From a bacterium (GTDB lineage: Bacteria; Bacillota; Clostridia; TANB77; RGIG9151), in NCBI GenBank assembly GCA_963635575.1, contig CAVHFU010000031.1, forward strand, positions 1 through 17,155: a stretch of 17,155 bases of DNA, in the 5' to 3' direction. The position numbers and the translations under genes are program-made. Shown piece after piece: positions 1 through 11,915 of the stretch. How positions within the stretch are numbered: position 1 is the first letter of the stretch; each line of letters opens with the position of its first letter. Under the pieces are notes generated by a model. It was not told where the DNA came from and searched no databases. It was given only the letters and a program-made list of their open reading frames with translations.

Positions 1-39
1 TTTGAAATCTTCATCATAACTTTTATATTGTCTTGCCAT
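1..39 (-). CDS. 5' end of a transposase-like ORF running off the left edge (probable IS3-family OrfA, HTH N-terminus)
   Basis: This ORF is too short for the ORF track. The minus strand reads GAGGTG-5nt-ATG GCA AGA CAA TAT AAA AGT TAT GAT GAA GAT TTC AAA, giving MARQYKSYDEDFK, with the ATG at 39..37. An opening of the form MAR-x-K-x-x-D/E-x-x-FK is typical of IS3-family OrfA proteins in Firmicutes, as recalled from memory. Only 13 codons are visible. Confidence 0.4.
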   Translation of the reverse strand, partial: MARQYKSYDEDFK

Positions 40-117
40 AGACACACCTCATTTCCTTAATTTGATATTATACCATATCGTTCGAAATTTCGTGTCTATG
101 TATCTATACTAACACCA
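1..117 (-). mobile_element. Putative left end of an IS3-like insertion sequence (terminal region, own promoter and start of orfA); boundary approximate
   Basis: The transposase-like ORF starts at 39. An extended -10 (TGGTATAAT, plus-strand 67..75) lies upstream of it. The ToxN-like reading frame loses its expected continuation at about 117..124, where the minus strand reads TTT ATA | TTGGTGTTAGTATAG. A TG dinucleotide at 117..116 would fit the usual IS3 5'-TG terminus. The other end and any target-site duplication lie outside the window. Confidence 0.35.
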
Positions 118-259
118 ATATAAAATAATCTAAATGTGTATCTATTAGTAAACAAGTATACGGACGTTCATACTTTAACATAAGTTCCGGATAAATATTT
201 ATAGGATAATCATTTATAAACTCAATAGATAATAAGGATATTTCCACATCATATTCCAT
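104..259 (-). pseudogene. Truncated type III TA toxin candidate (ToxN/AbiQ-like N-terminal 47-51 codons, then premature stop)
   Basis: This ORF is below the length cutoff of the ORF track. GGAGGTG (273..267) is followed by 7 nt and an ATG at 259..257. The translation is MEYDVEISLLSIEFINDYPINIYPELMLKYERPYTCLLIDTHLDYFILVLV*, with TAG at 106..104. The layout resembles ToxN/AbiQ N-termini (M-x-Y/F-x-V/I ... Y/F-I/L-x-x-Y/F ... RPY-hydrophobic strand ... Y-F/L-x-PL-S/T-S), but it ends where PLSS would be expected. Full-length toxins of this type are about 150-190 aa. Confidence 0.5.
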
Positions 260-278
260 ATTTTTACACCTCCGTTTT

Positions 279-313
279 AAAAAATCAGAGCATTCAATAT
301 TTAGAATGCTCTG
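279..313 (-). terminator. Rho-independent terminator between the repeat RNA and the toxin-like ORF
   Basis: The minus strand reads CAGAGCAUUC-UAAAUAUU-GAAUGCUCUG followed by AUUUUUU. This is a perfect 10-bp stem (313..304 pairing with 295..286), an 8-nt loop and a U6 tail. Confidence 0.85.
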
Positions 314-318
314 TTAGT

Positions 319-427
319 TTCTTCGCTCGGTCACTTTTTATTTTACCGATGTGTCAGAACCGTCACACATCTTCTTCGCTCGGTCACTTTTTATTTTACC
401 GACGAGTCGGAACCGTCACTCGTCATC
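319..427 (-). repeat. Two head-to-tail direct repeats (56 nt at 427..372 and 53 nt at 371..319)
   Basis: Unit 1 on the minus strand is GAU-GACGAGU-GACGGUUCCG-ACUCGUC-GGUAAAAUAAAAAGUGACCGAGCGAAGAA. Unit 2 is GAUGUGU-GACGGUUCUG-ACACAUC-GGUAAAAUAAAAAGUGACCGAGCGAAGAA. The 3' 31 nt are identical. The 7-bp hairpin stem differs at two base pairs, and both changes are compensated. Confidence 0.9.
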
Positions 428-451
428 TTTAGCGAATTCCCTTATAGTTAT

Positions 452-480
452 ATTATAGATAATAACTAGATACTTGTCAA
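452..480 (-). promoter_or_regulatory. Sigma-A type promoter driving the repeat RNA and toxin-like ORF
   Basis: The minus strand reads TTGACA (480..475), a 17-nt spacer (AGTATCTAGTTATTATC) and TATAAT (457..452). Both hexamers match consensus. Confidence 0.7.
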
Positions 481-500
481 CACAAATTATGTCGACAAGT
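472..500 (-). other. 11-bp inverted repeat overlapping the -35 box; possible weak hpf terminator or operator
   Basis: The minus strand reads ACUUGUCGACA-UAAUUUG-UGUUGACAAGU, with all 11 positions paired including one G-U. The 3' arm contains the TTGACA -35 element. The downstream sequence is only moderately U-rich (AUCUAGUUAUUAUCU). Confidence 0.35.
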
Positions 501-561
501 GTCAATCATCTACATATATAATATATGACAAAAGAGCTAACTTATACACTATAACTCAATC

Positions 562-1086
562 CTATTTCTCAGGTTCCAAAATTCCGAAGTTGCCATCTCT
601 TAATCTAAATAGCACATTAGTTTCTTGTGTATCGGAATTGTTAAATACATAGAAAGATTTATCAGAATCTCTTAATTCAAGCATTACATCTTCAACAGTC
701 ATAGGCTTTGTGTCAAAAGTCTTAACCTTTGTAATTTCTCCTTCTGTCATAATAGGTAATTCGATATTCGCATATTTGGCAGATAAACTGTCATCTTTTG
801 TTTGTCTTTCTTTCTTTGTTTTTGTCTTTCTGATTTGACCTTCAAGTAAGTCTATTCCTTTATCAATAGAAACATATAAATCATCATTCGTAGCCTCTAC
901 TCTATATGTATTTCCTTCAAAGAAAATTGTAACACCTAAAATATGTCTTTTCTTCTGTACACTAAATGTAACATTTGCTTCTGTGTCTTCATTAAAGAAC
1001 TTTTCAATTCTAGACAATTTTTTTTCTGCATACTCCTTCATTGCTTGTGTAACTTCTACGTTTCTTCCTGTCATAATGTACTTCAT
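562..1086 (-). CDS. hpf: Ribosome hibernation promoting factor, long form (S30AE/RaiA N-domain plus C-terminal dimerisation domain)
   Basis: The protein begins MKYIMTGRNVEVTQAMKEYAEKKLSRIEKFF, and its C-terminus contains KPMTVEDVMLELRDSDKSFYVFNNSDTQETNVLFRLRDGNFGILEP. Both are typical of Firmicute HPF/YvyD. I trimmed the start from the ORF-track 1125 to the ATG at 1086, which sits 7 nt after GAGGAGG. Confidence 0.9.
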   Translation of the reverse strand: MKYIMTGRNVEVTQAMKEYAEKKLSRIEKFFNEDTEANVTFSVQKKRHILGVTIFFEGNTYRVEATNDDLYVSIDKGIDLLEGQIRKTKTKKERQTKDDSLSAKYANIELPIMTEGEITKVKTFDTKPMTVEDVMLELRDSDKSFYVFNNSDTQETNVLFRLRDGNFGILEPEK

Positions 1087-1155
1087 AAAAATTCCTCCTC
1101 GTTGTTTTTTATATTTAGCATTCATACCTGAAACCAGATATGATGAAATATCAAA

Positions 1156-1470
1156 TTAAATCATTTTGTAGCTATTGTTTTTCACAATATCAAGTAACAA
1201 ATCAAAATTATCATCTTCAGCCATTTTGTTTTTTCTAATAGCACCGCATTTCTCACATTTATATATAATGATATATCCTTTTTTGGGGTTGTTCTCCATA
1301 CCGATAGGCTTTAACATTCCCTTGCATTCTTCAGCACGGTCGCCCGGCTCTTTATCTACATGTTTAGAATATAAACATGTAGGGCAATGGTTTCGGCAAG
1401 AATACCCAAGCGGTTTTACTTCATTACCACAATGTTCACAAACAAATGGCTCATCAATTTCAATAAACAT
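1156..1470 (-). CDS. RNHCP domain protein (zinc-ribbon, function unknown)
   Basis: The protein contains a literal CRNHCPTC motif plus CEHC and CEKC CxxC pairs, which matches the RNHCP family (Pfam PF12647, recalled from memory). It is 104 aa. Confidence 0.8.
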   Translation of the reverse strand: MFIEIDEPFVCEHCGNEVKPLGYSCRNHCPTCLYSKHVDKEPGDRAEECKGMLKPIGMENNPKKGYIIIYKCEKCGAIRKNKMAEDDNFDLLLDIVKNNSYKMI

Positions 1471-1499
1471 TTTCTCAATCCTAACATAAATAATTAAAC

Positions 1500-3020
1500 T
1501 TAACTAAGTGCAGATGCATATGTATGCGCTATATCTTTTTGCATATTTTCATAGTCAGTATCTAGTAATTTCAAGAACGCATTAACAACAAATTCATCAA
1601 ACTGAGTGCCTTTTCCCTTCTCTAATTGCTCTATCGCTTGAGAAAGTTCCATTTTAGTTCTATAAACCCTATCCGATGTCATTGCATCAAAAGCATCTGC
1701 TACACTAATAATTCTAGCTAAAAGTGGAATTTCCTCCCCTTTTAATCCATGCGGATACCCTCTTCCGTCTATTCTTTCGTGGTGATATTCAACCAATGGA
1801 ACAATATCCTTAAACATTGACATAGCTGATAATATATTTGCACCCTTTAGTGGATGTTTCTTTATTTCGTTATATTCATCATCATCTAATCGTGAATTTT
1901 TTAGCAAGATATCGTCATTAGTTCCAATTTTACCTATATCATGGAATATACCACCTATTTTTAGTCTCTCTATATCTGCTTCAGGCAATCCCATAGCTTG
2001 TCCTATTCTAGAAGCATAATAAGATACTCTGTCCGAATGACCTCTGGTATAATAGTCTTTAGCATCAACCGCAAGTCTTAAAGTTTCGATTGTGTCCATA
2101 TAACGTTTTTTTAATTCTGCATATGTCTCAACCAATTCGTCATTTTTCAAGTTAATTAAAGAATGCATTTGAGCATTATTTATAGCGGATGCAGCTTGTT
2201 TTGCATATATTTCTAAAAGCTTTAGGCAATCAGCATATTTATCACTCTCTATGTATAAGACACCTACTCCAGCAGAAGTATCGGTAACAAGCGGAATTAT
2301 AACTTCATTCGGCTTAGATATGGTTTGCCTTGTGCTTCTTGCATAACCGATATCAGTCATAAAGTCAGGTGACATAGAATCCATAAATATATCAATATCA
2401 CAGTTGTATTTTCCTATTCCTCTAAAAATACTCTTTTTAGCAGTGTCATCAGAAGAAACTATATCGTCTACAAGTATAAATGCATTTTCACTATATACAA
2501 GAGGCATAAGCTGAACAAGTATTTCCGCCAATATATTATCAAACGGTTGAAGTTGATAGATTTTAGGCAATGCGTTTATTATGTTATTTAATCCGTCCTT
2601 AAACTTTGAAATCGTTCTTTTTTGAGCAACAGACTTAAGGGCCGATTCAATTAAAAGCATAAGTTGATCAAATCTATCACTTTTTTCACAGTAGCATTGT
2701 ATATCGAGATTTTCCATCGTTTCAAGTGGAGGAGCTAAATCTTTGTGACCTGTAAGTAGCAGTATATATAAATCTTCGTCAAACTCTCTTATTAATTCTA
2801 CCATCTTATCGCCATTTATAGGTTGCATTATAAAGTCAAGAATCAACAAATCAAATTTATCCTTTTTAATTAACTCAATCGCGTCAAGAGGATTAGTTAC
2901 ACCAACGTACTCACAATTTTTACGTTTTAGTAAAATAGACACAGAATCTAAGATACCTATGTCATCATCAACAACAATAACCTTATATCTTTCTTCTGTG
3001 TTTCTGTTCCCTCTTCTCAT
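1500..3020 (-). CDS. Response regulator with receiver domain, central GAF-like region and HD-GYP domain (putative c-di-GMP phosphodiesterase)
   Basis: The N-terminal REC domain is recognisable (KVIVVDDD...LLILDFIMQ...LLLTGH). The C-terminus carries HDIGKIG and HHERIDGRGYP, which are the HD and GYP motifs. I trimmed the start to the ATG at 3020 (MRRGNRN), which lies 8 nt after GAGGGGAG. Confidence 0.85.
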   Translation of the reverse strand: MRRGNRNTEERYKVIVVDDDIGILDSVSILLKRKNCEYVGVTNPLDAIELIKKDKFDLLILDFIMQPINGDKMVELIREFDEDLYILLLTGHKDLAPPLETMENLDIQCYCEKSDRFDQLMLLIESALKSVAQKRTISKFKDGLNNIINALPKIYQLQPFDNILAEILVQLMPLVYSENAFILVDDIVSSDDTAKKSIFRGIGKYNCDIDIFMDSMSPDFMTDIGYARSTRQTISKPNEVIIPLVTDTSAGVGVLYIESDKYADCLKLLEIYAKQAASAINNAQMHSLINLKNDELVETYAELKKRYMDTIETLRLAVDAKDYYTRGHSDRVSYYASRIGQAMGLPEADIERLKIGGIFHDIGKIGTNDDILLKNSRLDDDEYNEIKKHPLKGANILSAMSMFKDIVPLVEYHHERIDGRGYPHGLKGEEIPLLARIISVADAFDAMTSDRVYRTKMELSQAIEQLEKGKGTQFDEFVVNAFLKLLDTDYENMQKDIAHTYASALS

Positions 3021-3133
3021 AAGAAAACTCCCCTCACATTTCCAAACATCATGGAAAAAACTCATACTAAACATTCCAACGTTTATGATATCGGCAAAAA
3101 GTCGTTTTATATTAACAATTTAGCAAAACAAAT

Positions 3134-3586
3134 TCAACTTTCAACGGTATCTCCTTTTTTTGTATAGCTAATTACAAGCATTATACATCCTACTACTATG
3201 CATATATCTGCAAAGTTAAATACGGGCCAAAACTTGAAATCAATAAAATCAACAACATACCCTCGAATTAATCTATCAATGTAATTCCCGACAGCTCCCC
3301 CTACCACTAAACTTCCGGCAAAAGTCTCAAATTTAGTAGGTCTTGACCTTATTAAAAACACAATAATTGCCAAAATAAAAATCGGTATAAGTATCTTTAG
3401 TAAAATATCATATTTATTAAAAAAACCCCATGCCGCACCATAATTTTCAACATACGTAAAAGACAAAATTTTATCTATTAGTACAATTTCATCTCGATAT
3501 AAGTTTAAAACTATAAATGCCTTGGTAATCTGATCAATTAAAATAGTGATAATACCGATTATTATACTTATCAATCCTATTCCCAT
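3134..3586 (-). CDS. lspA: Lipoprotein signal peptidase (signal peptidase II)
   Basis: The protein has the NYGAAWGF and FNFADICIV motifs (catalytic Asp regions) and four hydrophobic segments. I trimmed the start to the ATG at 3586 (MGIGLISIIIG...DQITK) after GGAGGG. The resulting 150 aa fits the usual LspA size. Confidence 0.85.
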   Translation of the reverse strand: MGIGLISIIIGIITILIDQITKAFIVLNLYRDEIVLIDKILSFTYVENYGAAWGFFNKYDILLKILIPIFILAIIVFLIRSRPTKFETFAGSLVVGGAVGNYIDRLIRGYVVDFIDFKFWPVFNFADICIVVGCIMLVISYTKKGDTVES

Positions 3587-3698
3587 TTTCCCTCCAATTT
3601 CAAAAGAGACACCATAAACAGCGGTCATATCCGCCAACACAATTGGTTTTAATTGCATTCGGTATTTCCGTTTTATTTAAGGTATCCCCTTTAACATT

Positions 3699-5666
<1,968 letters not shown>

Positions 5667-5687
5667 TTAATTCATTCCTTTCTAACC

Positions 5688-5960
5688 TTACATATCAAAT
5701 AGATTTCCTTCGGAATTTTCCGAACGTTTTAATAATGTAACGGAAGATATATTAGTTAAATAAACTTTATCTTTATTTTTCTTTCTTACTATAACAAAAG
5801 TCTTAGGGATATCCGAACATATAGTTTCCACGATTCCCATTTCCTCTGCTTTTTTTAAGTATATTTGAGTGTTTTTAGAAACACTCGCTGTATCCAAATT
5901 ACAAACAGCAACAATATCCTTCTGGTTTACATATACATCATTACCCAAATGTAAAAACAT
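5688..5960 (-). CDS. remB: DUF370 family protein (RemB-like extracellular matrix/biofilm regulator family)
   Basis: The sequence MFLHLGNDVYVNQKDIVAVCNLDT...VYLTNISSVTLLKR is typical of about 90-aa DUF370 proteins found just upstream of gyrB in Bacilli and Clostridia. The ORF-track start at 5975 is a GTG embedded in the RBS-like GAGGTG, so the ATG at 5960 is preferred. Confidence 0.75.
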   Translation of the reverse strand: MFLHLGNDVYVNQKDIVAVCNLDTASVSKNTQIYLKKAEEMGIVETICSDIPKTFVIVRKKNKDKVYLTNISSVTLLKRSENSEGNLFDM

Positions 5961-5993
5961 AATACTCACCCACACACCTCAAATCACAGTTAG

Positions 5994-6022
5994 ATAATAT
6001 CATTAATGCATTTAATAGTCAA
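5994..6022 (-). promoter_or_regulatory. Candidate promoter for remB-gyrB
   Basis: The minus strand reads TTGACT (6022..6017), a 17-nt spacer and TATTAT (5999..5994). Confidence 0.5.
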
Positions 6023-6056
6023 ACATTTTACGCTTTAATTTTCAAAAAAACAGTTG

Positions 6057-7631
6057 TTAAAATGTATCTTCATTCTTAGTTAACACAATATTATTCATTC
6101 CATTATAAATGTTGTTTATTTGTGGCTTTATTTGTTCGCCAAATTCCCTTGTATAAAACACCGTAGATGTTTCAAAATATAAACCTAGCATCGGTAATTT
6201 ATCAAACAAAATACTTTGCATTTTATCGAAATATTCTAATTGTTTGCTCTCTAAAATTTCATGCTTCGCAAGATAAACCAGATAGTCATATTCTTCATCT
6301 TTAAATCCGAATACATTACTTTTCGAGTTACTTTCAAAGTTGTATAAAAATTCCGGATAGTCTGTAATCGACCAATCAGTAACAGCTAGATCATAAGCAT
6401 ATGATTTAACGGCAGTATTATACTCCTCTCCTACTTTCGCAACAATGTTTATTTTCACACCTATTTTATCCAAATCATTCTTTATATACTCAGCCTTATT
6501 ATTCATACCTTTAGCATCACTATTTATAAGTAAACTAAATTCTAACTTATTCCCATCTTTGCTTCTAACAGAATTCCTTTGCTCCCAACCCGAATTTGTT
6601 AATAAATCTTGTGCTCTTTCAGGATTAAAAGCATATTTTTTCATACTCTTTGAATACAAATATGAATTAGGATTAATAGGCAAATCAGAATATATCCCAT
6701 AGCCATATAGTTCTTTTTCAATAATATAATCTCTATTAATTGCAAGTATCATCGCCTGTCTTATAACTTTGTCTTTTAGCACCTCATTTTGAGGGTTAAA
6801 TGTTATTCCTTCAAAAATACTCGTTACATATTTAGAATTATTATACGCACTCCTACCGTAAGCTCCAACTTCGGTGTTAGTATCAGCAATATCTATTTCG
6901 CCAAGTTTTAGTAAGTCAAATCCAGGTCTTGTTTTTGCAATAATCTTTACATCAATGTCTTTAATATTACCTGTTGATTGGATATAATAATTATCATTAT
7001 ATTTCAATGATATAAGGTCCTTATTGTTCGTAATAACCTCGTAAGGGCCTGTTCCGACATATCTTGATTCAGTAGCAAAATCTGATTTTTTGTAAACATT
7101 CTCACATAATATAGGAAAATTTAATTTCTCAGGCAAAAAATTATCATAATCGTTTAATTCTATTTTTATTTTGGAATCAGACAAAATTTCAACACTTTTA
7201 ATATTTTGTATATTATATATATAATACGATTGTTCACCTAATTCTCTTATTTTATTAATAGTGAAAGCGACATCAGAGGATGTAAACTTATCCCCATTAT
7301 GGAAATAAACATCATCTCTTAATGTAACTTCCCACTCTAGGTTATCATCCGTCAAAAGTAATTTGGCAAGTTGAGGTTCAGCTTTTAATTCATCATTTTT
7401 CTTAGTAAGCCCTTCAAAAACAAGATTACATACCTCATGTACATACTTATTCTTAGAAATTAAAGATAAATAATAGTCAGGTTCAATCATCAAAATATTA
7501 ATCTTTTCGTTTGGTTGATCAGCTTTCGCTTTTAACTCAGGCTGGACTTTATCTTTATTAATAAATAAAACTGTTAAACAGCTTATACACATAAATATAA
7601 TAGTAGATAAAGCTATAAATTTTACTTTCAT
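6057..7631 (-). CDS. ABC transporter substrate-binding protein, family 5 (peptide/nickel, OppA/DppA-like), N-terminally anchored
   Basis: The layout is SBP_bac_5-like (LVFEGLTKKNDELKAEPQLAKLL...EWEVTLRDDVYFHNGDKFTSSDVAFTINK), with an N-terminal hydrophobic anchor MKVKFIALSTIIFMCISC. I trimmed the start to the ATG at 7631, downstream of AAAGGAAA. No cognate permease or ATPase genes are adjacent. Confidence 0.85.
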   Translation of the reverse strand: MKVKFIALSTIIFMCISCLTVLFINKDKVQPELKAKADQPNEKINILMIEPDYYLSLISKNKYVHEVCNLVFEGLTKKNDELKAEPQLAKLLLTDDNLEWEVTLRDDVYFHNGDKFTSSDVAFTINKIRELGEQSYYIYNIQNIKSVEILSDSKIKIELNDYDNFLPEKLNFPILCENVYKKSDFATESRYVGTGPYEVITNNKDLISLKYNDNYYIQSTGNIKDIDVKIIAKTRPGFDLLKLGEIDIADTNTEVGAYGRSAYNNSKYVTSIFEGITFNPQNEVLKDKVIRQAMILAINRDYIIEKELYGYGIYSDLPINPNSYLYSKSMKKYAFNPERAQDLLTNSGWEQRNSVRSKDGNKLEFSLLINSDAKGMNNKAEYIKNDLDKIGVKINIVAKVGEEYNTAVKSYAYDLAVTDWSITDYPEFLYNFESNSKSNVFGFKDEEYDYLVYLAKHEILESKQLEYFDKMQSILFDKLPMLGLYFETSTVFYTREFGEQIKPQINNIYNGMNNIVLTKNEDTF

Positions 7632-7665
7632 ACAAACATTTCCTTTCACACAAAGCTACCATCTA

Positions 7666-7694
7666 ATAATATAATTTATATAAAATTTTTTCAA
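7666..7694 (-). promoter_or_regulatory. Candidate promoter for the substrate-binding protein gene
   Basis: The minus strand reads TTGAAA (7694..7689), a 17-nt spacer and TATTAT (7671..7666). The AT-rich background makes chance matches likely. Confidence 0.35.
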
Positions 7695-7716
7695 TAATAT
7701 TATAAACATTTTATGC

Positions 7717-7749
7717 AAAAAGAAAGACCTTGAAAATTCAAAGCCTTTC
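7717..7749 (-). terminator. Rho-independent terminator after mgtE
   Basis: The minus strand reads GAAAGGCUUUGA-AUUU-UCAAGGUCUUUC followed by UUUUU. The stem is 12 bp, including two G-U pairs. Confidence 0.75.
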
Positions 7750-7763
7750 GCTAAATACATTTT

Positions 7764-9119
7764 CTACGCGCCAGGAATAATTTCCATAAACTTAGTCGCT
7801 AATCCAAAATAAATTATAACCGTACACATATCTACAATAGTAGTAATAATCGGAGCAGCCATCATAGCAGGGTCTAGGTGGCAGGCTTTAGCAAGAATAG
7901 GCAGTGTTGCTCCAAGTACCTTAGCAATAATAACTGTGCATATTAACGTTAACCCTACAACAATCATAAGCTGAGCCATTATCGGTTCGCTACTATACAT
8001 TAGTCTGATTCTAATGACATTCGCTAATACTAAAACAACCCCAACCATCAAAGCTATTCCGACTTCTTTAGCAATAACCTTAAGGCCATCTCTAACATGG
8101 ATCTCATCTAATGCAAGACCACGAATAATCATAGTAGAACTCTGTGCTCCACAGTTTCCACCAGTATCCATTAGCATAGGTAAAAACGCTACAAGTAACG
8201 GAACAGCTGCAAAAGCATTTTGGTAATTAGTAATAATAGTTCCAGTGATAGCCGCTGACAATGTCAAAATTAATAACCAAAGTACCCTGTTTTTGGCTTG
8301 TTTCCAAACAGGAGTCTTGAAATATGTATCATCATTAGTCTGCATAGCTGCCATTTTTGTAAAGTCTTCTGTATTCTCCTCTTGAATAACATCAACAGCA
8401 TCATCGACAGTAATGATTCCAACCAATCTAAGTTCTTTATCTACAACAGGCATAGCAATAAAGTCATATTTTTCAAACTTTCTAGCCACAACTTCTTTAT
8501 CTTCCAGTGTTGTAGCATAAATAATGTTAGTCTTCATTATATCGCCAAGTGCTGTATCTTTTTCTGCGAGCAATAAGTCTTTTACAGTAACTATTCCAAG
8601 TAATTTACGATTTTTATTAGTAACATAGCAAGTATAAATAGTTTCTTTATCCACACCTGTTTTTCTTATCTTTTCAAAGGCATCTTCAACTGTCATATCC
8701 TTTTTCAAATCAACATATTCAACAGTCATAATGCTTCCAGCACTATCTTTAGGATACTTAAGTACCTCATTTATCATATTACGAGTAGCAGAATCAGTAT
8801 ACTTCAAAATCCTATTAACAACATTTGCAGGCATTTCTTCAATTATGTCTACAACATCGTCTAAATACAACTCATCAACGATCGCTTTTAATTCCTTATC
8901 ATTAAAAGCCGAGATAAGTAACTCTTGATCGTCACTATCCATTTCTACGAAAGTTTCAGCTGCTAAATCTTTAGAAAGCAATCTAAATGTCAAAATTAAA
9001 TCCTCGTTAGAAAGTCCATTTATCATAGATGCAACATCCATCGGACTAATATCATTTAACAAAAGTTTTAACTCTGAAAATCTTTTTTCTTTTAATAATT
9101 GTATTACTTTTTCCTTCAT
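7764..9119 (-). CDS. mgtE: Magnesium transporter MgtE
   Basis: The protein has an MgtE N-domain, a tandem CBS pair (IMTVEYVDLKKDMTVEDA..., FIAMPVVDKELRLVGIITVDD) and a C-terminal membrane domain with the conserved DTGGNCGAQS motif. I trimmed the start to the ATG at 9119, which lies 8 nt after AAGGAG; the ORF-track start is a GTG inside the RBS region. Confidence 0.92.
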   Translation of the reverse strand: MKEKVIQLLKEKRFSELKLLLNDISPMDVASMINGLSNEDLILTFRLLSKDLAAETFVEMDSDDQELLISAFNDKELKAIVDELYLDDVVDIIEEMPANVVNRILKYTDSATRNMINEVLKYPKDSAGSIMTVEYVDLKKDMTVEDAFEKIRKTGVDKETIYTCYVTNKNRKLLGIVTVKDLLLAEKDTALGDIMKTNIIYATTLEDKEVVARKFEKYDFIAMPVVDKELRLVGIITVDDAVDVIQEENTEDFTKMAAMQTNDDTYFKTPVWKQAKNRVLWLLILTLSAAITGTIITNYQNAFAAVPLLVAFLPMLMDTGGNCGAQSSTMIIRGLALDEIHVRDGLKVIAKEVGIALMVGVVLVLANVIRIRLMYSSEPIMAQLMIVVGLTLICTVIIAKVLGATLPILAKACHLDPAMMAAPIITTIVDMCTVIIYFGLATKFMEIIPGA

Positions 9120-9128
9120 ATTAGTCAC

Positions 9129-9341
9129 TCCTTTAATTTAATTTTTTAGGAATGAAACACAAAGTCCAAAACACCAAAAGTATATATTAAAAAGAATGGG
9201 CACAAAAATAAATCCCTGAAGTATAAAAATAAGTCGCGAGCTTATTTGTAAAATGCCCATTCTTCGTACTTCGGGGGACAGGTTTCATATCATTATTAGC
9301 TTCCGTACCCATGCTTTTCACCTCTTTCTACTTAACATCCA
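9129..9341 (-). promoter_or_regulatory. Structured 5' leader of mgtE with competing helices and a terminator (possible Mg2+-responsive attenuator; only partial resemblance to the M-box)
   Basis: The untranslated leader is about 210 nt, running from a consensus promoter to the mgtE RBS. Helix A/A' pairs 9276..9267 with 9223..9214 (10 positions, one C-A mismatch). Helix B/B' pairs 9264..9254 with 9202..9192 (11 bp) and is followed by a U-run. A small hairpin at 9247..9227 lies between them. The A-B-A'-B' order makes the two helices mutually exclusive. Confidence 0.5.
9186..9265 (-). terminator. Leader terminator candidate (long-loop stem AAGAAUGGGCA / UGCCCAUUCUU plus U-run)
   Basis: An 11-bp perfect inverted repeat pairs 9264..9254 with 9202..9192. 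On the minus strand it is followed by UUUAAUAUAUA, and the stem tail CUU extends the U-run to five. The loop is about 51 nt and contains an internal 7-bp hairpin, which is atypical for a simple terminator. Confidence 0.45.
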
Positions 9342-9347
9342 CATAAC

Positions 9348-9376
9348 ATAATACGCCATTTTTTGCAAAATGTCAA
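9348..9376 (-). promoter_or_regulatory. Promoter of the mgtE leader
   Basis: The minus strand reads TTGACA (9376..9371), a 17-nt spacer (TTTTGCAAAAAATGGCG) and TATTAT (9353..9348). Confidence 0.7.
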
Positions 9377-9492
9377 TCGTTTTTTTAATTATTAAAAATG
9401 TTTATAAATTGCATAATTGAGCCATTTGTCAGTATTTACTTTACGCTAGTAATTTCCTATTTATTGGTAGTTATAGCAACCGTTTAAACAGC

Positions 9493-9528
9493 AAAAAAGA
9501 GACTGCTAAAATTTTAACAGTCCCCTCT
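9493..9528 (-). terminator. Rho-independent terminator ending the efflux operon
   Basis: The minus strand reads AGAGGGGACUG-loop-CAGUCUCU followed by UUUUUU. It lies immediately after the stop codon of the TolC-like gene. Confidence 0.7.
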
Positions 9529-9531
9529 TTA

Positions 9532-10662
9532 CTACATATTTCCTATTACATCGCCAACTTTAATAGCTATATTAAATCTATCATTCAATAAGGTACTTTC
9601 TTTAACTTTACTTTTATAAGAATTTTCAGCATTCATAACAGCCAACTCAGAACCAAGATAAGAATTTTTAGATATTAATCCAACATCAAACATAACCTTA
9701 GCTTGTTCATATTGTGTTTTTACTCTGTCTAATTCTTCTTTAGCTATTTTTACTTCACTTTCTTTGTCTTTAACTTGATTATATAAAATTCTTAAGTTTT
9801 CCTTAACAGAATTTATATCATTATTTAATCTAAATTCAGCATCACTATAATCATCCTTGGCTTTTTTCTTATCATCTCTTAGCATAAAGCTTGTTTTAGT
9901 AGCCAATATATATTGGTTCTCTTTTTGTTGGTATTGAAGTTTAACAGATAATACAGAATTATTAGTTTCAAGTGAATCCTCAATTGTTTTTTCTAAATCT
10001 TCAACTGTAAGTTCCTTTTCAACATATTCAGGTCTTTTTATAAGTAATTCTTCAGTAACATTAAATCCCATAATTTGCTTTAATGAAATTTTTAATGTCT
10101 CCAAACTCTTTTTTATACTTTCTAATTGCAAACGTGACGTTTCCAAAGTAGATTTCACACTTTCCAAGTCATTCTTTGTAATCATATTAAGGCTAAACTT
10201 AACCTCAGCAATTTGTACATCATTTTCTTGCTTTAATATAGACTTATTAAGTAATTCTATATTATCTTCAAGCTCAAATATGCTATAAATCATATTCTTT
10301 ACAGAATACTCTATTTTTTGCTTTGCTCCTTCTCTTCCTGCCAAAAAGCTATTATATTGTAATTCTGAAATTTTCATCATATAGCCCCAACATGTAAGAT
10401 ACTCATTTTCATCTTCAAAAGAATATCCTCCGCTTCTAACTTTATTCTTCCACTTTCTGTACTCATCTTTTGCATCATCGTACAACTCTTTTTGGTCTTT
10501 TACAGTTTTCTCTAAATCCACAATTGTAGAATTATGCTTTAGTGCATACTCAACTGCTTGCTCCATAGTCATATAATTATCTTGAGTAGTTGTAACTTCT
10601 TCTGCTATGCAAACTGAGCAAAGTAAACAAAAAGTTACAACAAGACTTATAATTCTCTTCAT
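9532..10662 (-). CDS. TolC-like outer membrane efflux protein (OEP) family protein, short form, with signal peptide
   Basis: The protein has a signal peptide (MKRIISLVVTFCLLCSVCIA) followed by the OEP-type opening MTMEQAVEYALKHNSTIVDLEK and long coiled-coil repeats. It is the last gene of the MacAB-type operon, and GGGAGAGG lies 5 nt before its ATG. At 376 aa it is shorter than canonical TolC/OprM. Confidence 0.65.
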   Translation of the reverse strand: MKRIISLVVTFCLLCSVCIAEEVTTTQDNYMTMEQAVEYALKHNSTIVDLEKTVKDQKELYDDAKDEYRKWKNKVRSGGYSFEDENEYLTCWGYMMKISELQYNSFLAGREGAKQKIEYSVKNMIYSIFELEDNIELLNKSILKQENDVQIAEVKFSLNMITKNDLESVKSTLETSRLQLESIKKSLETLKISLKQIMGFNVTEELLIKRPEYVEKELTVEDLEKTIEDSLETNNSVLSVKLQYQQKENQYILATKTSFMLRDDKKKAKDDYSDAEFRLNNDINSVKENLRILYNQVKDKESEVKIAKEELDRVKTQYEQAKVMFDVGLISKNSYLGSELAVMNAENSYKSKVKESTLLNDRFNIAIKVGDVIGNM

Positions 10663-10679
10663 AATAACCTCTCCCTTCT

Positions 10680-11915
10680 CTATTCATATCTAAGTGACTC
10701 GATAGGGTCTAAATCAGCAGCCTTTTTAGCTGGATACACTCCAAAGAACACACCGCATAGTACAGCAACTCCTATTGAAACTATAATTATAGATGGTGAA
10801 ATCAAATCAGTCGGACTGCAATTAGCAATAGTTGCAAGTGGAAAACTAGGAATTATTCCTATTATTATTCCAACCAATCCACTCATCGATGTAAGTAATA
10901 CAGCCTCTACTAAGAATTGAATAATAATATCCTTCTTTTGTGCTCCAATCGCCTTTCTTATACCAATTTCACGAGTCCTTTCAGTAACAGCAACAAGCAT
11001 AATATTCATAATACCAATTCCACCAACAACAAGCGAAATTGCACCAATTGCAAGAATTGCAATTTGGATAACATTGATAACACTATTTACTGTATCTTGC
11101 ATTTGCTGAGAGCTTGTAAAAGTGTATTTGTCCTCTGTATTATGCAACAACTCAAGATACCTTTTTGCTTTATCTGCTATTTCTTTTGAATCCGCATCTT
11201 TGGGAAAAACAACTTCTATCTCATCAATTGTATTTGTTTGATAAAAGTTTTGGTATGTAGTATACGGAATAATAAGCATACCCGGTACACTATCCGACAG
11301 TTCATCTGCCGTCATATCTATACCTATGTCAAAATCAATTGTGCCAACAATAGTAAGTGTCTTACTTCCATACTTTTCATCTTGTATAATAACTTTTTTT
11401 CCTATCGGGTTAAAATTTCCGAATAATCCTTTAACACACATCTCAGGAATAACAGCAACACTAGCTGAACAATCAACATCATTTTGAGTAAGTAATCTTC
11501 CGTTAGTAAGATCCATTGGCCTCGTATTAAAAACTTCAGGTAAAGCCCCCATAATAATTCCAATTTTCGACTTATCTCCATAATTTACGAATGTGCTTCC
11601 TGTTTGATTAGAACCATAATACTGAATAGCAGTTGCTTCCTCTATATTCTCTTTTAAATATTCAACATCTCTTAGCGTAAATTTATCCGACTCTTCAATG
11701 TTAGCAGTTACAGAAGGTGCAATATTAATAATATTGGCACCAAGTTTTCCAAATAATCCGTTGATATATGCTTTTCCCGCATTACCGGCCGAAAAAATCA
11801 TAATAACTGAAGAAACGCCTATGACAACACCTAACATTGTAAGGAAAGTACGCATTTTATTCGACTTAATACTATCTATTGCTTGCGAAAACACCTCCAA
11901 AAACAACCGTATCAT
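10680..11915 (-). CDS. ABC transporter permease, MacB/FtsX family
   Basis: The protein has an N-terminal TM helix (MRTFLTMLGVVIGVSSVI), a large extracytoplasmic MacB_PCD-like domain and a C-terminal FtsX module with the TERTREIGIRKAIGA motif and three TM helices. Its ATG directly abuts the adaptor gene stop codon (TAGATG). Confidence 0.9.
   Translation of the reverse strand: MIRLFLEVFSQAIDSIKSNKMRTFLTMLGVVIGVSSVIMIFSAGNAGKAYINGLFGKLGANIINIAPSVTANIEESDKFTLRDVEYLKENIEEATAIQYYGSNQTGSTFVNYGDKSKIGIIMGALPEVFNTRPMDLTNGRLLTQNDVDCSASVAVIPEMCVKGLFGNFNPIGKKVIIQDEKYGSKTLTIVGTIDFDIGIDMTADELSDSVPGMLIIPYTTYQNFYQTNTIDEIEVVFPKDADSKEIADKAKRYLELLHNTEDKYTFTSSQQMQDTVNSVINVIQIAILAIGAISLVVGGIGIMNIMLVAVTERTREIGIRKAIGAQKKDIIIQFLVEAVLLTSMSGLVGIIIGIIPSFPLATIANCSPTDLISPSIIIVSIGVAVLCGVFFGVYPAKKAADLDPIESLRYE

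Follow-up and report, generated by a model that had tools for sequence, protein, structure and literature searches.

What occupies positions 104-480 of contig CAVHFU010000031.1, and can it still work? A reading made from the letters alone (the sequence-only reading) of a stretch of 17,155 nucleotides (nt) of this contig, referred to below as the window, had proposed that the minus strand of this seemingly empty region carries a type III toxin-antitoxin (TA) locus with a ToxN/AbiQ-like toxin, possibly of a new family or subfamily. We conclude with high confidence that the locus is a TenpIN-family type III TA locus which has been disabled by an insertion sequence (IS). It is an ordinary, degenerate copy within a known family, and positions 104-480 are to be annotated as an IS-inactivated TenpIN locus, neither as empty sequence nor as a new defence family.

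The toxin gene and its interruption

Read on the minus strand, the window carries a promoter, two direct repeats, an intrinsic terminator, a ribosome-binding site and the start of a toxin gene, in this order (Table 1). The promoter, the terminator and the ribosome-binding site with its ATG are all present as the sequence-only reading had described them. The promoter matches the consensus at 12 of 12 positions and is the only perfect match in window 1-1200, the region covered by the promoter and Rfam scans; transcription would start near position 445, which gives a leader of about 20 nt. The repeat unit had been described as 53/56 nt in two copies at 427..319. The two abutting copies are confirmed, and both turn out to be 53 nt long, the extra three nucleotides being a GAT (427..425) before the first copy. 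The two copies are 91% identical (Tandem Repeats Finder: period 53, 1.9 copies, score 181), and their profile scores (61.7 and 62.8 bits) exceed the family median.

The open reading frame (ORF) at 259..104 encodes 51 amino acids (aa). Its product matches the NCBIfam model NF047358 (type III toxin-antitoxin system TenpIN family toxin) with E = 8.4e-7, residues 10-47 being aligned with profile positions 1-37 of 141, and a local TenpN hidden Markov model (HMM) at positions 1-49 of 159 with E = 2e-20. An exhaustive phmmer search returned 67 relatives, and in none of these alignments does the matched part of the query extend past residue ~49. The full-length relatives of the fragment (150-170 aa, 55-67% identity) score 138-170 bits on NF047358, for which the whole-protein cut-off is 90 bits. 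In the protein alignment the fragment is colinear with its relatives to ...DYFI (residue 47), after which the relatives go on with the core CxPFR..I.H...SGLDY.K, whereas the window product ends with LVLV and a stop codon. The conserved residues of the TenpN core are P53, R55, H60, G75, D77 and K80 (PMC12283969, whose residue numbering is followed here). A complete toxin has about 140-170 aa and this core; the window ORF has neither the core nor any of the C-terminal helical part. Elsewhere in the window there is no second TenpN segment and no additional tenpI unit.

The type III TA layout and the view of the ORF as a 5' toxin fragment are supported, both by the NF047358 match and by intact counterparts in other genomes. 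On the other hand, the assignment of the N-terminus to ToxN/AbiQ has to be replaced, since the toxin is TenpN. The profile search that had been suggested as a check matched the TenpN model and not ToxN: Pfam and PADLOC had no match for the 51-aa product, and five full-length relatives gave sub-threshold noise only, with no Pfam ToxN among it. A PDB sequence search with one relative returned no significant match. The 51-aa product itself is already in a public source, as a predicted protein of a 17,192-nt NCBI contig, which corrects the view of the region as unannotated; a word-indexed protein search with it returned nothing beyond the query. At the level of structure, the AlphaFold2 model of one relative (P0012; mean predicted local distance difference test score 87.8) has its best matches in AbiQ (4glk; template modelling score 0.55) and in the Bacillus thuringiensis ToxN (4ato; template modelling score 0.58), with E of about 5e-3 to 1.5e-2, and MazF toxins rank next. 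The TenpN family is thus predicted from this model to have a ToxN/AbiQ-like endoribonuclease fold while standing outside the ToxN sequence family.

The truncation itself was missed in the sequence-only reading: from about position 118 the window follows the left end of an IS3-family element. Blastn homology to the DNA of intact relatives ceases at window 120-118. When the orfA peptide was back-translated into a degenerate pattern, the pattern was found in two metagenome contigs only (L135 and L136). Both contigs share the window sequence from exactly (T)TGGTGTTAGTATAGATA..., that is, from 118/117 downward, and their upstream flanks are unrelated. The element in L136 encodes a 92-aa orfA product (HTH_Tnp_1, 2e-12), followed by a 276-aa orfB product (HTH_21; rve, 7e-22). 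The element at 1-117 is an IS3-family insertion sequence, which it resembles in the HTH_Tnp_1 domain of orfA, the HTH_21 domain and DDE integrase core (rve) of orfB, and a terminus that begins with TG; it differs in that the window holds just the first ~117 nt of the element, its left end only. Because the homology to the tenpN relatives stops where the IS homology with different flanks begins, tenpN is cut after codon 47. The exact 31-mer of the IS end was absent from the 185,579 species genomes scanned for it, viral contigs yielded no match to the degenerate orfA pattern, and the element had no match in the plasmid and phage collections either.

The IS3-family element has therefore most likely entered tenpN after codon 47, so that no more than a 51-aa stub can be made, from which the conserved catalytic core is missing. 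Since the toxin is truncated, no toxin, addiction or abortive-infection activity is expected of the window locus now. The remaining promoter-tenpI-terminator cassette would most likely give an orphan antitoxin RNA of ~165 nt, which would probably stay unprocessed unless another TenpN is present. The promoter, the units, the terminator, the ribosome-binding site and the 47 native codons are flawless, which suggests that the insertion is recent.

The tenpI RNA and the surroundings of the locus

We used the unit core TGACGGTTCYGA-N15-25-TGACCGAGC as search pattern and aligned 85 distinct 53-nt units without gaps. The alignment supports an H-type pseudoknot, with stem 1 formed by columns 1-7 with 18-24, stem 2 by columns 10-14 with 40-44, and the A-rich linker AAAAUAAAAA between the stems. 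Over the 85 units 99.5% of the cells are paired, and 8 of the 12 pairs have changed on both sides. None of 500 shuffles reached any of the observed measures, and slid controls paired in no more than 43% of cells. Stem 1 has many alleles, among them GACGAG/CUCGUC, GAUGUG/CACAUC, GUCCUG/CAGGAC and GUCGAG/CUCGAC. The tenpI core is nearly invariant across loci, and part of this uniformity comes from the search pattern through which the loci were ascertained.

Both units of the window form all 12 pairs of the pseudoknot. Five differences separate unit 1 from unit 2, and two of them are compensatory pair changes in the 7-base-pair hairpin (GACGAGU/ACUCGUC in one unit, GAUGUGU/ACACAUC in the other). 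Such compensatory changes between the units make a chance pattern untenable and speak for structural selection acting on the RNA. The predicted transcript between 445 and 275 folds at -45.5 kcal/mol, whereas its shuffles average -31.9 (z = -3.9). The terminator scan returned three terminator-like sites where shuffles predict 0.2; the terminator hairpin is present in the minimum free energy and the centroid folds alike, and an equivalent element occurs in the intact relative L061. The Rfam scan gave chance-level matches only, and no Rfam match was obtained in four related loci. tenpI has been described as a stem 1, an A-stretch and a stem 2 (PMC12283969), in agreement with the pseudoknot found here, and the predicted tenpI pseudoknot now has direct covariation support in one large subfamily. 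We also considered the repeats as the leader or attenuator of another gene, or as a chance repeat; both were rejected by the covariation and by the consistent linkage to TenpN.

Based on the analogy with ToxIN and CptIN, the intact relatives would operate as follows. A constitutive promoter would drive the two 53-nt tenpI units, and each unit would fold into an H-type pseudoknot with a 7-base-pair stem 1, a 5-base-pair stem 2 drawn from the stem-1 loop, and the A-rich linker. The terminator would halt most transcripts, and read-through would yield TenpN, a putative ToxN/AbiQ-like endoribonuclease of ~160 aa. TenpN would then cut the precursor into units, and these units would keep it inhibited. 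Phage infection, or the loss of the locus, would free the toxin and bring about growth arrest or abortive infection. The TenpIN system of Photorhabdus luminescens has been shown experimentally to be a TA and abortive-infection system (PMC3401426).

Table 1. Coordinates of the locus features in the window and of tenpI-like segments in two phage contigs
Feature	Positions	Strand	Description
sigma-70-type promoter	452..480	-	-35 TTGACA 480..475; 17-nt spacer; -10 TATAAT 457..452
tenpI unit 1, 53 nt	372..424	-	direct repeat; nhmmer against unit profile 62.8 bits; 12/12 pairs formed
unit 1 pairing	stem 1 424..418 with 407..401; stem 2 415..411 with 385..381		A-rich linker ~397..388
tenpI unit 2, 53 nt	319..371	-	stem 1 371..365 with 354..348; stem 2 362..358 with 332..328
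intrinsic terminator between array and toxin gene	279..313	-	stem 313..286, 10 perfect pairs, 8-nt loop, A, T6 284..279
ribosome-binding site GGAGGTG	267..273	-	7-nt spacer to ATG 259..257; read from sequence
5' fragment of tenpN, codons 1-47	119..259	-	ends ...THLDYFI; NF047358, phmmer, local TenpN HMM, blastn
junction and out-of-frame tail	104..118	-	four foreign codons LVLV and stop from the inserted element; translation, two independent element copies aligned
IS3-family left end	1..117	-	terminus (T)TGGTGTTAGTATAG...; orfA start 39..37 (MARQYKSYDEDFK...)
phage tenpI-like segment, L001	2470-2550		
phage tenpI-like segment, L002	4730-4830		

The promoter region of the window is not conserved in the relatives. 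A 17-nt imperfect inverted repeat at window 469-503 (arms 469-485 and 487-503; 82% complementary) overlaps the -35 box and duplicates the TTGACA motif. Possible explanations are an operator and a relic of the site at which the tenpIN cassette was inserted downstream of hpf. Window 562-11915 holds chromosomal housekeeping genes, namely hpf, a gene for an RNHCP protein, a response regulator gene with an HD-GYP-type domain, lspA, a gyrB/parE-like gene and mgtE. The same neighbourhood also carries an efflux set of OEP (TolC-like) and MacB/FtsX genes, and the guanine-plus-cytosine (GC) content is 32%; the efflux set together with this GC content hints at a low-GC diderm host. Window 1-560 had no match in the plasmid collection.

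Arrays without a toxin and the alternatives

The unit-core pattern was found in 14 viral contigs and in at least 119 species-representative genomes; the genome counts given here are drawn from the latter, among the matches listed. Seven of the 119 listed genome matches were discarded as chance, having no profile-detectable unit, in line with a rough estimate of ~6 chance matches. Near-identical units occur in more than 100 species, and most of the hosts belong to the Lachnospiraceae or to other Clostridia; Veillonella, Phascolarctobacterium and Erysipelotrichaceae are represented too. Two units are the norm (97 of 128 loci). Among the matches listed, 95 bacterial loci with real tenpI units could be evaluated. 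A full TenpN ORF lies 50-300 nt downstream of the repeats in 71 of them, 7 have a partial TenpN, and 17 have none; the full tenpIN operon is present in four viral loci as well (L003, L005, L010 and L012). The existence of homologous loci with these repeats before a full-length toxin had been set beforehand as a test of the sequence-only reading, and these 71 bacterial loci and four viral contigs provide it. The intact architecture is well seen in L061, which has a promoter, two units, a terminator and a 157-aa TenpN beginning with MEYDSVLSLLSSKFIQDYP.... Across the tenpI loci the pairwise identity of the toxins goes down to 31%, with a median of 47%.

Several loci depart from this pattern. Seven tenpI units are found in L037 (~880-1250, minus strand) and five in L124 (2429-2692), both above the published 1.9-3.0 copies, and the toxin of L037 has a Lys/Asn-rich N-terminal extension. 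In L039 (4134-6071) the TenpN frame runs without a stop into PepD-like (aminoacyl-histidine dipeptidase-like) sequence to make a 645-aa ORF; the downstream part, from our reading of the sequence, presumably resembles a dipeptidase, and the ORF is probably a case of a lost stop codon or a sequencing error in a metagenome-assembled genome, not a true fusion. Toxin remnants left by internal deletion were seen in L030 and L113, and orphan arrays lie upstream of recA in L088 and L129. We considered whether loci without TenpN have a different toxin partner, and rejected this: the downstream genes are mutually unrelated (recA, pepD-like and others), and two of the loci show TenpN remnants.

Altogether the toxin is absent or partial in 24 of the 95 evaluable loci among the matches listed. 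Single-unit arrays make up 8 of the 17 toxin-less loci vs 4 of the 75 toxin-bearing ones (Fisher p = 9e-5), and this excess of single units points to erosion rather than maintenance. With about a quarter of the loci that have this antitoxin having lost or damaged their toxin, and with their arrays eroding, care is needed when defence systems are counted from toxin or repeat hits alone.

These counts bear on the alternative that the orphan array of the window has been selected as an immunity RNA against the TenpN of prophages or plasmids (anti-addiction), or against a second TenpN of the same genome. The flawless promoter, units and terminator of the window, the unit scores above the family median, and the retention of tenpI without an intact toxin in those 24 loci are all consistent with it. 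So is the presence of tenpIN on phage contigs of the same habitat, and with a tenpI core nearly invariant despite divergent toxins, cross-neutralisation is conceivable. However, the single-unit counts fit neutral decay better than maintenance, and the near-invariance of tenpI is in part produced by the search pattern. Moreover, selectivity for the cognate toxin is the rule among the type III antitoxins studied to date (title of PDB 4ato; PMC3401426), and the precursor may stay unprocessed without TenpN. We therefore regard selection as an immunity RNA as distinctly unlikely, and keep to a TenpIN locus disabled by the IS.

A second alternative puts the IS junction down to an assembly artefact or to a minority variant, with most cells carrying an intact, working tenpIN. 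The contig ends ~120-155 nt into a repeat element, as is typical of short-read assemblies, which usually break in repeats, and the native part of tenpN has no other lesion. The break in homology, however, sits precisely at the conserved terminus of the element, as defined by two independent metagenome copies and as in a true insertion. Assemblers seldom join unrelated sequence at the exact terminus of an IS. An artefact or minority variant is thus improbable. An intact, functional type III TA or abortive-infection module that represents a new family or subfamily and has exceptionally long repeats, for which the canonical promoter, repeats, terminator and toxin start could be cited, has next to no probability left: it is refuted by the truncation, the ORF ending after 47 native codons at the IS end, and by the family match, TenpN being a known family in which two 53-nt units are typical and near-identical units being found in more than 100 species.

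Several points weigh against the IS-disabled TenpIN locus that we favor. The fragment alone scores 29 bits on NF047358, under the whole-protein cut-off; being a fragment, it falls below that cut-off by itself, and the family assignment therefore leans on the full-length relatives. The support for stem 2 comes from few variants: U-A has become C-G in five cases, and a single unit has three compensated pairs. Since the search pattern fixes most of stem 2 in one or more units of each locus, variation in this stem is under-sampled. The IS junction can be placed only to within 1-2 nt. Finally, the contig stops inside the IS, and the right end of the element and the 3' part of tenpN lie beyond the sequence, so that a larger rearrangement or deletion may be involved.

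tenpI units without a toxin are also found in phages. Unit 2 of the window matches phage MT835481.1 (blastn E = 3e-5), and nine syntenic gut-phage contigs of 64-80 kb (L001, L002, L004, L006, L008, L011, L013, L014 and L015) each have one complete tenpI-like unit and a degenerate upstream unit (~1.5 units) and no tenpN. The phage units are intergenic, with a 74-aa ORF on one side and a 156-aa membrane/coiled-coil ORF on the other. Two alleles occur: allele 1 has an intact pseudoknot (AACGAG...CUCGU[C/U]) and allele 2 a weakened stem 1 (GAUGUG...AACAU), and they correspond to the two stem-1 alleles most frequent in bacteria, the same two that the window units carry. Two other viral contigs, L007 (141 kb; 2512-2615) and L009 (99 kb; 4393-4491), have two tandem units, and no TenpN ORF was found downstream in the sequence examined. 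The sequence after the L007 array looked like a structured RNA on reading and matched no Rfam family.

By analogy with phage PhiTE, the phage copies are possibly pseudo-TenpI decoys. Wild-type PhiTE has 1.5 pseudo-ToxI repeats, and through their expansion or recombination the phage can overcome ToxIN (Blower et al. 2012, PMC3475682). The phages found here likewise form a lineage with ~1.5 antitoxin-like units and no toxin; they differ in that their copies belong to TenpI, not to ToxI. Equally, the phage copies may be remnants of phage-borne tenpIN loci. More broadly, the near-invariant 53-nt tenpI pseudoknot could serve as a "currency" RNA that gut Clostridia share with their phages: an array kept together with its promoter would immunise toxin-less bacteria against the TenpN of incoming prophages or plasmids, and the phage copies would disarm the TenpIN abortive infection of the host. 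We offer this idea only tentatively and consider it unlikely; if true, the phage tenpI decoys would be the first natural TenpI counterpart of the PhiTE pseudo-ToxI. The 2025 survey of TenpIN searched by toxin, and orphan tenpI copies are not described in it (PMC12283969). As candidate RNA anti-defence decoys, the orphan tenpI copies of phages are the sole lead with some novelty to come from this locus.

Comparison with known type III systems

The window locus shares its operating logic, its gene order and a pseudoknot RNA made from tandem repeats with ToxIN of Pectobacterium atrosepticum (pECA1039) and with AbiQ/antiQ of Lactococcus. The likeness of the toxins is at the level of the fold only, as predicted for the TenpN relative compared with 4glk and 4ato. 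Unlike the window array of two 53-nt units, ToxI has 5.5 copies of a 36-nt repeat.

CptIN of Coprococcus and Eubacterium rectale is, like the window locus, a type III TA system of gut Firmicutes with about two repeats, and for CptIN it has been proposed that an A-rich strand forms A-minor contacts with the stem of the pseudoknot (PMC12283969). However, the 53-nt unit of the window lies outside the 40-48 nt of the CptI repeats (PMC3401426, Table 2), and the toxin matches the TenpN model only.

The closest system is TenpIN, with its prototype in Photorhabdus luminescens TT01. TenpIN repeats are 39-57 nt long (mean 50.9), and the loci have 1.9-3.0 copies of them (Blower et al. 2012, PMC3401426, Table 2), so that two copies of 53 nt lie inside the published range; the new family or subfamily that the sequence-only reading had proposed from the repeat length rested on a mistaken length for the known families. 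With TenpIN the window locus also shares the N-terminus of the toxin, the order of promoter, about two repeats of ~50 nt, terminator and toxin gene, and the tenpI pseudoknot. The host range is again centred on Firmicutes and reaches phages; more than half of the 722 TenpN sequences catalogued are from Firmicutes (Nadig et al. 2025, PMC12283969). The window locus differs from TenpIN in that its toxin gene is interrupted by an IS and in its place within a subfamily of gut Clostridia whose 53-nt unit (GACGAGUGACGGUUCUGACUCGUCGGUAAAAUAAAAAUUGACCGAGCGAAGAU) is very conserved.

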